Assembly (NCBI GenBank): GCA_016873395.1
Contig: VGXG01000007.1
Location: forward strand, 159-64,158
Length of the DNA stretch: 64,000 nt
Reading direction: 5' to 3'
Source: Nitrospira sp.
GTDB taxonomy: Bacteria; Nitrospirota; Nitrospiria; Nitrospirales; Nitrospiraceae
The notes under the pieces were generated by a model. That model was not told the DNA's origin and did not search any database. It worked only from the letters and a program-made list of their open reading frames with translations. Below, one piece after another: positions 22,153-25,571 of this stretch. How positions within the stretch are numbered: position 1 is the stretch's first letter; each line of letters starts with the position of its first letter. The translations under genes and the position numbers were made by a program.

Positions 22153-23727
22153 GTGGACACGTCCTCTCTCATTGACAGCCTGCACCCGCTGGAGATCAAG
22201 GTCCTCACCGCGCTGCGCGAGCACCATGCGGCCGCCCCTTCCGGCGCCCTGCGGGAAGATGAGATCGCTCAATCAGCCTTGCTTGAGACCGCCCAGGTCA
22301 GCATGGCCATGGGGTGGCTGCTCGCCAAGACGCTTGCCCGCGTTCAGCAGGAGACGGTCACCCCCATCGCATCCCTGACCAAGATCGGCGAACGCTACTT
22401 TGAAAAGTACTCCCCGGTGGAGCGGATCCTGTCGGCTGTCCGAGCCGCCGCGCAGACCGGCAAGCGCCTCACAATCCAGGACATTCAGGCTCATGAGGGG
22501 CTGGAGGCCACCGAGACGAGCCGCGCCGTCGGCGCCCTCAAAAAAGAGGGAGCGATCCGGATCGTGGCGGGAGGTTGTGTGGAGGCGACCGGTGCCCCCA
22601 GCCACACGGCTGAGTCGTTGCGGGCGCTCTTGAAACAGTTGCGCGGGACGAGACGGGAGCTGAAGGCCATTCCGGAGCCGCTGCGCCCGGTGGTTGAGCA
22701 GTATGCGGTCAAACGCGGCAACACCAACGAGCCCTTCCGAATCGACGACCACGTCGATCGCTGGTATGCCCTGACCCCGGAAGGGAAGAGCGTGGCCGAC
22801 CTCCTCGCCCAACAGAGGCCTTCGGACGAAGTCTCCCAGCTCACGCCGGAGCTGCTCAAGGACGGAAGCTGGCGCAGCAAGCGGTTTCGCAAATACACGA
22901 TCAGCCTGCGACCGCCGCGCCTGGCGGCCGGCAAGCGCCATCCCTATCGCGAGTTTCTGGACCTGGTCAAGCAGAAACTGGTCGGGATGGGATTTCAGGA
23001 GATGCGCGGGTCGCTGGTCGAGACCGAATTCTGGAACATGGATGCCCTCTACATGCCCCAGTTCCATCCGGCCCGGGCCATCCACGACGTCTATTATGTG
23101 AAAGAGCCGACCCACGCGCGCGCCATCGCCGAGCCCTTTCTGTCGCGGGTGGCGGATGTCCACAAGGACGGGAGCAAGACCGGTTCCGCCGGATGGGGCT
23201 ATAACTACGATCGCGGTCGGGCACGCCGCTTGATCCTGCGGAGCCAGGGGACGGCAGTCTCGGCACGCCGTCTGGCGTCGGCTCCCCAGGTGCCGGGCAA
23301 GTATTTCTCCATCGCGCGCTGTTTCCGCTACGATGCGGTGGATGCGACCCACGCCTGTGATTTCTTTCAGGTGGAGGGGATCGTGCTGGGGCCGGACATT
23401 AATTTTCGCACGCTGCTGGGTCTTCTGAATCTGTTTGCGCAGGAAATGGCGCAGGCCAAGGAAAGCCGCTTCCTGCCGGCTTACTTTCCCTTTACCGAGC
23501 CCTCGGTCGAGTTGCACGTCCGCCACCCGAGGCTGGGCTGGATGGAACTGGGAGGCGCCGGCCTCTTTCGCCCGGAGGTGACCCTGCCGCTGGGGATCGA
23601 CGTGCCCGTGATCGCGTGGGGGCTCGGTCTGGACCGAATGGCGATGGTGGCCCTGGGCATTCACGACATCCGCGACCTCTTCTCCACCGACCTGGAGCTG
23701 ATCCGAACCACGCGGGGGCATTTCTAA
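22153..23727 (+). CDS. pheS: phenylalanine--tRNA ligase alpha subunit, archaeal/eukaryal type
   Basis: 524 aa; bacterial PheS is about 330-350 aa. Long N-terminal winged-helix-like region, then GKRHPYREFLDLVKQKLVGMGFQEM..VETEFWNMDALYMPQFHPARAIHDVYY and class II motifs (FRYD..D.TH...FHQVEG; GLGLDR). Confidence 0.9.
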   Translation: MDTSSLIDSLHPLEIKVLTALREHHAAAPSGALREDEIAQSALLETAQVSMAMGWLLAKTLARVQQETVTPIASLTKIGERYFEKYSPVERILSAVRAAAQTGKRLTIQDIQAHEGLEATETSRAVGALKKEGAIRIVAGGCVEATGAPSHTAESLRALLKQLRGTRRELKAIPEPLRPVVEQYAVKRGNTNEPFRIDDHVDRWYALTPEGKSVADLLAQQRPSDEVSQLTPELLKDGSWRSKRFRKYTISLRPPRLAAGKRHPYREFLDLVKQKLVGMGFQEMRGSLVETEFWNMDALYMPQFHPARAIHDVYYVKEPTHARAIAEPFLSRVADVHKDGSKTGSAGWGYNYDRGRARRLILRSQGTAVSARRLASAPQVPGKYFSIARCFRYDAVDATHACDFFQVEGIVLGPDINFRTLLGLLNLFAQEMAQAKESRFLPAYFPFTEPSVELHVRHPRLGWMELGGAGLFRPEVTLPLGIDVPVIAWGLGLDRMAMVALGIHDIRDLFSTDLELIRTTRGHF

Positions 23728-23730
23728 GAA

Positions 23731-23832
23731 TCGTGACGGGTGACACGTGACGAGTGACAGGCGGAAAGAACCTTTCACATCTTCATCAAGATTCCGTTTG
23801 ACTTGTCACGCGTCACACGTCACTTGTCACGC
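23731..23832. repeat. heptad-periodic inverted-arm element (word GTGAC / GTCAC)
   Basis: GTGAC at 23733, 23740, 23747, 23754 and GTCAC at 23805, 23812, 23819, 23826, all exactly 7 nt apart. The two spacer nt are variable. The loop is about 45 nt and contains degenerate TTCAY units. The element fills the pheS-pheT spacer. Confidence 0.85.
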
Positions 23833-23840
23833 ATAAGAAG

Positions 23841-25571
23841 ATGCCGACCATCTCGATCAACCTGAAAGACTTCGAGCAGCTCCTGGGCCGGGAAGCCCTC
23901 GGCGACCGGCCGGTCACGACGGCTCAGCTTGAGGCGTGGTTGCCCTTGGTAAAGGGGGAGCTGAAAGACCATGAATCGGAGAACGGCGAGGTGCGGATCG
24001 AGCTGCAGGACAGTAACCGTCCTGATCTCTGGTCCTGCGAAGGGATCGCGCGGCAAATCCGGATCAAGCTGACAGGGGCCTCGTCCTCCTACCCATTTTT
24101 CAAGGGTACCCAGCCCTCGAAACGCCGCCTCAAAGTCGCCCCCGGCCTGGAGCGGGTCCGGCCCTACGTCGCGGCCTGCACGGCGACCGGCTATCCGGTG
24201 ACCGAAGCCGGGCTGGCGCAGCTCCTTCAGGTGCAGGAAAAGCTCGCCGACATCTTCGGCCGGAAGCGGCATACCGTCTCGATCGGCCTGTACCGTCTGC
24301 CGGCGATCGTGTTCCCGGTCTACTACGACTTGGTCAAGCCGGACGACGCCCGATTCACGCCCCTGGGGTTCGAGGAGAAGATGTCGTTGCGCGAAATCCT
24401 GGCCGTGCATCCCAAGGGGCTGGAGTACGGGTCGCTCATCGCTGGGCACGACCGCCTTCCGCTCTTGCGTGACGAGGAAGGGCAGGTGCTCTCGCTCCCG
24501 CCGGTCATCAACAGCCGCGAGATCGGGGAAGTGCGCGTGGGCGATCAGGATCTCTTCGTGGAGGTCACCGGCACCGATCTGCTGATGGTGCTCCTGACCG
24601 TGAACATCCTGGCGGTCAACCTGGCGGATCGCGGGGCGGCTGTCAAGGCGGTGGAGGCGCTCTATCCCTACGCCACACCCCTGGGCAAGTCGCTCCGGAC
24701 CCCGCTCGATTTCGGCAAGGCGCGCACCATCCCGCTCAAGACCATCGAAACTGCATTGGGCCAGACCATAAAAGCCGAGCAGGTCCGTGAAACCCTGCTT
24801 GCCTACGGCTATGAGGTGACCTCGTCCCGCGACCAGGTCGCGGTCAAGCTCCCTCCCTACCGGAATGACTGCATGCACGCGGTGGATGTGGTGGAGGACG
24901 TGGCGATCAGCCTCGGCTACGGGGAGTTTACCCCGGTCATGCCGTCCCAGTTCACGGTCGGCGGCCTCTCCCGCGTGGAGCAACTGTCCGATCGTGTTCG
25001 CGACTTGATGGTCGGCATCGGCTTTCAGGAAATCATCTCAAACGTCATGGCATCCCGGCCGGAGCTGATCGACCGCATGCGCCTCGCCGGCCGCGAAGAG
25101 GATCGCGTGGTCGAGGTGGACAACCCCATGACCCAGACCTATGCCTGCTTGAGGCAGAGCGTTATCCCGTCCCTCCTGCGGGTGGAGGCGGCCTCCGCTC
25201 GCTCGTTCTATCCGCACCGGCTCTTCGAGGTCGGCGAGGTCGCGCTGGTCGATCCGACGGCGGAGGTGGGCTCCAGGACTGTGACGCTGCTGGCAGCCCT
25301 GATCGCCCACGCCAGCGCGAACTTTTCGGAAATCCACTCTTGCTTGGACCTGCTCCTCTATTATCTGGGCTGCCAGTACCGGCTGGAGCCGATCTCCCAT
25401 CCCTCATTCCTGGAAGGGCGGGCCGGACGGATCACCGTCCAGGGCCAGCCGCTTGGCTTGATCGGGGAACTGCACCCGGAAGTGCTGGAACAGTGGCAAG
25501 TGACGACGCCGGCGGTGGCGTTCGAGCTGGAGGTGGATCGACTGGCGGGAGAGAATGTCGCAAAGTCGTAA
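23841..25571 (+). CDS. pheT: phenylalanine--tRNA ligase beta subunit, archaeal/eukaryal type
   Basis: 576 aa; bacterial PheT is about 790-800 aa. MPTISINLKDFEQLLG... B3/4 and B5-type regions (RPDLWSCEGIAR). No N-terminal OB/tRNA-binding domain of the bacterial type. Confidence 0.9.
   Translation: MPTISINLKDFEQLLGREALGDRPVTTAQLEAWLPLVKGELKDHESENGEVRIELQDSNRPDLWSCEGIARQIRIKLTGASSSYPFFKGTQPSKRRLKVAPGLERVRPYVAACTATGYPVTEAGLAQLLQVQEKLADIFGRKRHTVSIGLYRLPAIVFPVYYDLVKPDDARFTPLGFEEKMSLREILAVHPKGLEYGSLIAGHDRLPLLRDEEGQVLSLPPVINSREIGEVRVGDQDLFVEVTGTDLLMVLLTVNILAVNLADRGAAVKAVEALYPYATPLGKSLRTPLDFGKARTIPLKTIETALGQTIKAEQVRETLLAYGYEVTSSRDQVAVKLPPYRNDCMHAVDVVEDVAISLGYGEFTPVMPSQFTVGGLSRVEQLSDRVRDLMVGIGFQEIISNVMASRPELIDRMRLAGREEDRVVEVDNPMTQTYACLRQSVIPSLLRVEAASARSFYPHRLFEVGEVALVDPTAEVGSRTVTLLAALIAHASANFSEIHSCLDLLLYYLGCQYRLEPISHPSFLEGRAGRITVQGQPLGLIGELHPEVLEQWQVTTPAVAFELEVDRLAGENVAKS

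Follow-up and report, generated by a model that had tools for sequence, protein, structure and literature searches.

The 64,000-nucleotide stretch of Nitrospira sp. DNA analyzed here (contig VGXG01000007.1 of assembly GCA_016873395.1, positions 159 to 64,158 of the forward strand; hereafter the window) contains adjacent pheS and pheT genes for the alpha and beta subunits of phenylalanyl-tRNA synthetase (PheRS), which are of the archaeal/eukaryal type and run toward the bacterial thrS-infC-rpmI-rplT cluster. A sequence-only reading of this locus had proposed that a laterally acquired pair displaced the bacterial genes in situ, with the spirochaetes as precedent. We consider it likely that the pair is the only PheRS of the organism, that it is an archaeal-type enzyme acquired long ago, and that it has been inherited vertically. 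The two genes and the spacers that follow them are:

22153..23727, plus strand: pheS, archaeal/eukaryal-type PheRS alpha subunit; 524 aa, GTG start; matched by NF003210, TIGR00468 and Pfam
23728..23840, plus strand: pheS-pheT spacer, 113 bp; long hairpin with arms of a 7-nt periodic repeat
23841..25571, plus strand: pheT, archaeal/eukaryal-type PheRS beta subunit; 576 aa, ATG start; matched by TIGR00471 and Pfam
25572..25644, no strand assigned: pheT/rplT convergent spacer, 73 bp; hairpin of 8-nt periodic repeats

The alpha subunit scores 555.2 bits against NF003210 (PRK04172; cut-off 350), with residues 9-521 aligned to profile positions 3-492 of 496, and 341 bits against TIGR00468 (cut-off 237). 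Its class II catalytic core (Pfam tRNA-synt_2d) spans residues 248-519 and is preceded by an N-terminal extension of about 220 aa, in which residues 1-220 lack a bacterial counterpart and residues 103-137 give a weak winged-helix match in Pfam. The translation contains the motif EFWNMDALYMPQFHPAR, together with the class II motifs FRYDAVDATHACDFFQVEG and AWGLGLDRMAM, and the nearest solved structures are those of the eukaryotic cytosolic PheRS alpha subunit (8S8B and 3L4G). The 524-aa length, the extension and the signature first described for this subunit are thus all present in the reading frame at 22153-23727.

The beta subunit, which starts with MPTISINL, passes TIGR00471 (pheT_arch) with 476.8 bits (cut-off 282.65) and fails TIGR00472 (pheT_bact), against which it reaches 137.6 bits (cut-off 402.65) over profile positions 410-693 only. 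Pfam recognizes B5, the catalytic-like domain (tRNA_synthFbeta) and a weak B1 in this protein, and shows neither an OB-fold (B2) tRNA-binding domain nor a C-terminal anticodon-binding (B8) domain; the frame at 23841-25571 and the Pfam result agree with the initial description of a 576-aa subunit with an MPTI start and no OB/B2 module. Residues 1-360 align to the PheRS beta fragment of Pyrococcus horikoshii (2CXI, 218 bits), and in the B3/4 editing region this alignment retains the block LL..EG.VLS.PP.INS...F.EVTG. Human 3L4G_B is matched with 203 bits and Thermus 1B70_B with only 59 bits. This search with hidden Markov models (HMMs), in which the archaeal-type models are passed and the bacterial beta model is not, bears out the architecture put forward in the sequence-only reading: as judged from sequence, both subunits are archaeal/eukaryal-type PheRS. 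Standard annotation models already give these genes their right names.

Similar to the P. horikoshii (2CXI) and human (3L4G) enzymes, the pair shows the same HMM membership, domain order and alpha class II motifs, and its B3/4 editing region can be aligned residue by residue. It differs from them in its bacterial host, in an identity of only about 30-45%, and in its substrate, a tRNA-Phe of bacterial appearance whose position 20 is U or C. The homology, together with the lack of a further PheRS, predicts an (alpha-beta)2 heterotetramer that charges tRNA-Phe; for activity, quaternary structure and editing the prediction comes from homology.

The source assembly comprises 2.34 Mb in 97 contigs and is 97.8% complete. 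A search of this genome with TIGR00472 finds the window gene, and the sole extra match is weak (26 bits), covers the tRNA-binding part of the model and lies in a 662-aa frame on another contig. TIGR00468 returns a single gene in the genome, and bacterial-type PheS and PheT queries from Nitrospirota relatives, searched with tblastn, match only the two window genes. A bacterial-type pheST elsewhere in the genome, which would have made the present pair an accessory copy, is therefore not found, and the lack of a second pheS or pheT in a genome of this completeness indicates that the pair is the working, and only, PheRS of the cell.

The closest loci belong to Nitrospira, Nitrospiraceae and Nitrospirales, and all 41 sampled genomes of the order carry a gene above the pheT_arch cut-off. 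Within the phylum Nitrospirota, pheT_arch is found in 99 of 151 genomes (about two thirds), and pheT_bact is above cut-off in 45. The two types occupy disjoint families, the archaeal type being found in f1-f7, f10, f11, f14 and f15 and the bacterial type in f8, f9, f12, f13 and f16-f24, and no genome among the 151 has both. The swap is an old, vertically inherited lineage trait and not an event of this genome; a displacement as proposed in the sequence-only reading would likewise be lineage-wide. In Spirochaetota, the archaeal type is present in only 15 of 81 genomes. A pheT_bact above cut-off is absent from five other carriers that were checked (two Spirochaetia, the Xenobia genome, one further bacterium and a Bathyarchaeota archaeon).

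A separate observation concerns the Nitrospirota with the bacterial-type enzyme. The PheT of f9, f13 and f16-f24 (e.g. G097:C1:1756391-1758343) is only about 690-745 aa long and matches TIGR00472 from about position 156, and thus is without the N-terminal B1/B2 (OB-fold) part; the bacterial-type PheT of f8 and f12 has the full length of about 800 aa.

The genes around the pair, whose order bears on how it came to lie there, are:

19020..19997, plus strand: fmt, methionyl-tRNA formyltransferase; Pfam Formyl_trans_N and Formyl_trans_C; opens the plus-strand run that ends in pheS-pheT
19994..21418, plus strand: rsmB, 16S rRNA 5-methylcytosine (m5C) methyltransferase; Pfam Methyltr_RsmB-F, NusB and RsmF-B_ferredox
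21301..22134, plus strand: rpe, ribulose-phosphate 3-epimerase; Pfam Ribul_P_3_epim, 282 bits, match from residue 47
25645..26001, minus strand: rplT (L20), last gene of the bacterial thrS-infC-rpmI-rplT cluster; TIGR01032, 155 bits
26097..26300, minus strand: rpmI (L35); TIGR00001, 77 bits
26345..26836, minus strand: infC (IF-3); TIGR00168, 223 bits, profile positions 7-168
26880..28814, minus strand: thrS, bacterial-type threonyl-tRNA synthetase; TIGR00418, 737 bits
28876..28950, minus strand: tRNA-Val(GAC), directly upstream of thrS; ARAGORN, and Rfam tRNA with 65 bits

As listed, the rpe frame has a TTG start, 277 aa and a 118-bp overlap with rsmB; because its Pfam match starts only at residue 47, the real start is probably later, near 21439. 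The listed GTG start of infC may not be genuine. The genes rplT, rpmI, infC and thrS all pass bacterial equivalog models, and they lie on the minus strand with pheST converging on them from the plus strand, exactly as had been described. The GC content of pheS-pheT (0.63-0.64) equals that of the flanks.

In E. coli, the canonical arrangement is a thrS-infC-rpmI-rplT-pheS-pheT cluster. The same genes lie on one strand in bacterial-type Nitrospirota (L104, L106-L109), so the bacterial order from which the sequence-only reading argued is that of the relatives within the phylum. Like the canonical cluster of such relatives (L106, L109), the window has an intact, bacterial thrS-infC-rpmI-rplT with the PheRS genes next after rplT; unlike in that cluster, the PheRS genes are of the other type, are preceded by rpe and lie on the opposite strand, so that pheS-pheT (plus) are not downstream of rplT on its own strand as in a canonical rplT-pheS-pheT operon. 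Given the opposite strand and the position behind rpe, they cannot be co-transcribed with rplT.

When the synteny is compared across Nitrospirota, rplT is convergent to pheT in 76 of the 89 archaeal-type loci with enough flanking sequence (within 300 bp in 74 of them), whereas the bacterial-type loci have the one-strand operon. Of 74 archaeal-type loci, 65 have a same-strand rpe ahead of pheS, and the order fmt-rsmB-rpe-pheS-pheT is kept in the Nitrospirales. The deeply divergent family f15 (L096, L097) has the rplT adjacency and no rpe; f5 has the adjacency with an 841-bp gap (L099), and L082 has it with a 2.3-kb insertion. In f14 the two are convergent at a distance of 11.6 kb, and in two genomes of f11 they are 26 and 48 kb apart on one contig. 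We argue that the adjacency is ancestral in the archaeal-type Nitrospirota, as it is spread over the deepest Nitrospirota branches of the enzyme and shows a graded erosion. A chance landing exactly at rplT is unlikely, and this favors a replacement of the resident pheST at its own locus or next to it, to which we give an even chance.

Several observations weigh against such a replacement. In a third f11 genome pheST and rplT are far apart on the same chromosome, and f4, f6 and f10 have them on separate contigs. A tblastn search of the pheT-rplT spacers of L099, L082, L096 and L097 for relics of bacterial pheS or pheT gave nothing below E = 0.4, so that a replacement at the locus would have left no direct trace. 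(The gap in L082 contains an unrelated 704-aa open frame.) The rpe-pheS linkage is also old, being found in f10 and f14 as well, both without close rplT adjacency, and this second conserved linkage leaves room for another insertion history. The pair might have landed first beside rpe, at the end of the fmt-rsmB-rpe operon for example, with the bacterial pheST deleted separately and the juxtaposition with rplT produced by rearrangement or deletion. Besides the breadth of the rpe-pheS linkage and the missing relic between pheT and rplT, this history is favored by the fact that rpe is not near pheT in bacterial-type relatives. It has to account, however, for the f15 loci, where the rplT adjacency exists without rpe, for f14 and f11, which keep pheST within 12-48 kb of rplT, and for the other phyla with the same enzyme, in none of whose examined loci the rplT link was seen. 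Moreover, by our own estimate a random landing just downstream of rplT would be expected about once in thousands of cases in a genome of a few thousand genes. An initial landing away from rplT is therefore possible, though we regard it as doubtful. As for the in-situ displacement of the sequence-only reading, the adjacency in most loci and the proximity in further families speak for it, but neither a relic nor an exclusive linkage to rplT accompanies them.

To place the enzyme, trees of both subunits were built from the loci of known origin and 150 representatives of 50%-identity clusters and rooted on bacterial-type sequences, the beta tree with IQ-TREE under a site-heterogeneous model and a quick search, the alpha tree with a careful search. 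Archaea were labelled at source as Thermoproteota only; two further clusters, one of Aenigmarchaeota and one of Methanomassiliicoccaceae, took their labels from names. In the beta tree, a bacterial clade (Shimodaira-Hasegawa-like approximate likelihood ratio test, SH-aLRT, 85-89) unites all Nitrospirota rows, the main Spirochaetota group, the Xenobia genome, one further bacterium and about 45 unlabelled representatives, and is nested among groups that contain Thermoproteota. In the alpha tree, the 30 bacterial rows form a single clade (ultrafast bootstrap, UFBoot, 99; SH-aLRT 98) within a group that also contains Thermoproteota rows (nodes 99/97 and 100/99). Both subunits thus group with spirochaete sequences and nest among archaeal ones (alpha 99/98; beta 85-91), and the lateral acquisition that had been proposed is upheld by both trees. 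The main Nitrospirota group is monophyletic in the alpha tree (93/97); family f15 branches separately, and a single Nitrospirota clade is not rejected (approximately unbiased test, AU, p = 0.45).

Profile searches and cluster look-ups name Latescibacterota, Armatimonadetes (Armatimonadota), 'Leptospirillia', Nitrospira tepida, Candidatus (Ca.) Nitrospira bockiana and Ca. Vecturithrix granuli as further members of the clade, the last within a subclade found on contigs of 6.5-10 Mb. The genes next to PheRS in five clade genomes are bacterial or unremarkable (e.g. Mfd, BatA, TonB-dependent receptors and ABC transporters), and the short contigs of the basal representatives P0154 and P0157 hold no informative neighboring genes. 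The PheT of P0346, on a 7-kb contig labelled Candidatus Hodarchaeota archaeon, falls within the Vecturithrix-like bacterial clade; this archaeal label probably stems from a binning error. Among named archaeal clusters, the one nearest in the beta tree is that of Aenigmarchaeota; L093, a Bathyarchaeota record, is among the nearest Thermoproteota rows. A second, small spirochaete group (L153, L155 and L158, from genomes G288, G261 and G266) lies outside the main bacterial clade and clusters in the beta tree (98) with representatives that include P0244, which belongs to a 90% cluster named Methanomassiliicoccaceae; this looks like an independent transfer from archaea to spirochaetes.

Because the bacterial clade nests among archaeal sequences under the bacterial-type rooting, the trees point to an old transfer from archaea to bacteria, followed by spread among bacterial phyla. 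Two features of the trees count against this conclusion: the donor lineage and the nesting hinge on a distant outgroup, and the key nodes of the beta tree reach only 85-91 SH-aLRT in a quick search. The 'archaeal-type' enzyme might instead be an old bacterial form that some phyla inherited vertically and others lost, with no archaeal transfer at all. The size and depth of the bacterial clade, its presence across many phyla and the long branch that separates it from the nearest archaeal sequences would suit such a history. Nevertheless, the nesting is found in the well-supported alpha tree and the beta tree agrees, and within Nitrospirota and Spirochaetota the enzyme is patchy, with sister families that have the normal bacterial enzyme in the canonical operon. 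We therefore think it improbable that this is a retained bacterial form.

That the pair reached this genome by a recent lateral transfer, or is an accessory second PheRS peculiar to it, is very improbable. Both are refuted by the single copy, the native composition and the shared position, where some 75 related genomes (about 75) have the same genes with 60-86% identity. That a piece of an archaeal contig was fused to bacterial DNA in assembly or binning is hardly credible, for although the genome resembles a metagenome-assembled one (97 contigs), bacterial rpe and rplT flank the genes midway along a contig longer than 64 kb, and identical junctions in closed Nitrospira chromosomes (e.g. L035, L041 and L065) refute such an artefact.

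The two spacers of the pair can each form a strong hairpin. In the pheS-pheT spacer, the arms consist of tandem 7-nt repeats (GTGACNN / NNGTCAC) and the RNA fold has an energy of -49 kcal/mol (z = -4.6). The hairpin of the pheT/rplT spacer is built from the tandem 8-nt repeats AAAGTCNN, and folds on both strands (-34.9 and -32.8 kcal/mol, z = -4.0 and -4.9). A simple terminator scan called no U-tract terminator in the pheT/rplT spacer, and Rfam found no leader or attenuator near pheS. The pheT/rplT hairpin is probably a two-way terminator or insulator that separates the converging units. As the gap between the rpe stop and the pheS start is only 18 bp, pheS-pheT are probably co-transcribed with fmt-rsmB-rpe.

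The single tRNA-Phe(GAA) of the genome, on contig C62 (3195-3270, minus strand) and thus outside the window, has A73 and an ordinary bacterial shape. Among 16 Nitrospirota sequences, tRNA-Phe is nearly identical between eight archaeal-type and eight bacterial-type carriers, and that of f8 (bacterial type) differs from that of f11 (archaeal type) by one base. Position 20 is U in all sampled Nitrospirota except this genome and its close relative L177, which have C. A shift in tRNA-Phe identity between the carriers of the two enzymes was considered and rejected, as no change is seen in these sequences. The lack of change fits an identity set centered on the anticodon and A73. Evidently, to go by the tRNA genes, the incoming enzyme used the resident tRNA-Phe without a change of identity elements.

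Elsewhere in the window, within 18620-18935 on the minus strand, 18676-18874 is called as a group I intron by Rfam, with 57.3 bits against a gathering score of 50. Its flanks (CGCGGGGTGGAGCAGTCTGGTAGCTCGTTGGGCTC ... CATAACCCAAAGGTCGAGG) resemble two parts of an initiator tRNA-Met(CAU) whose anticodon loop is interrupted, and a sigma-70-like promoter lies beside this candidate split tRNA-Met at 18970-18941. ARAGORN misses the candidate; across the entire genome it reports a single tRNA-Met.

The exchange of an essential translation enzyme with two subunits for a form from another domain is a textbook case of lateral transfer. For Spirochaeta, Treponema and Borrelia, the archaeal PheRS has been described as the result of a single transfer from archaea to bacteria that replaced the bacterial enzyme and forms a shared derived character, with an affinity to Thermococcales (Andam and Gogarten, 2011; PMC3191353). 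The open literature searched describes the PheRS swap for spirochaetes only, and contains nothing on Nitrospirota or other phyla. The Nitrospirota pair resembles the spirochaete enzyme in its subunit lengths (alpha about 513-528 aa, beta about 514-573 aa) and adjacent pheS-pheT, in being the cell's sole PheRS and the mark of an entire lineage, and in sharing one bacterial clade with the main spirochaete sequences in both trees. It differs in belonging to another phylum and in its convergence on rplT, which is seen in no other phylum examined and is absent from spirochaete loci. The spirochaetes thus remain a valid precedent, though not the sole one, since the clade is found in at least five further bacterial lineages. 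On a wider scale, we tentatively suggest that all or nearly all archaeal-type PheRS in bacteria belongs to one old clade, which passes from phylum to phylum as a cassette of adjacent pheS and pheT and displaces the resident enzyme, and that in Nitrospirota this happened at the rplT-pheST locus itself, after which the cassette stood inverted relative to rplT.

In the history that we favor, an archaeal pair would have been transferred to bacteria long ago, and a single enzyme clade would then have spread between bacterial phyla. The ancestor of the archaeal-type Nitrospirota would have gained the adjacent pheS-pheT pair and lost the bacterial one, and the new pair would have been passed on vertically thereafter; it may have replaced the resident pheST at or beside rplT, ending on the opposite strand. 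The enzyme, with its long alpha subunit and its short beta subunit with a B3/4 editing domain, would charge an ordinary bacterial tRNA-Phe (GAA, A73). Its genes would be transcribed together with fmt-rsmB-rpe, and the repeat-built hairpin would insulate them from the converging rplT operon.

The archaeal-type PheRS of Nitrospira is a real and ordinary lineage trait, both old and lineage-wide, and adds one more case to a kind of event already known. As it marks whole lineages and standard models already recognize it under the right name, it is useful as an evolutionary marker and no surprise; the conserved inverted position beside rplT and the wide spread of one enzyme clade in bacteria add a modest interest. 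The same clade is fixed in several other phyla and in most of Nitrospirota, to which the main nitrite oxidizers of soils and wastewater plants belong; the two PheRS types are mutually exclusive at the family level, and the bacterial tRNA-Phe would have needed no change for the swap. In marker-gene phylogenomics, the bacterial pheT marker model will be missing for these lineages, and inhibitors directed against bacterial PheRS may fail on them. If the proposed replacement beside rplT is true, the locus would preserve a footprint of the way in which an essential synthetase with two subunits gets swapped.

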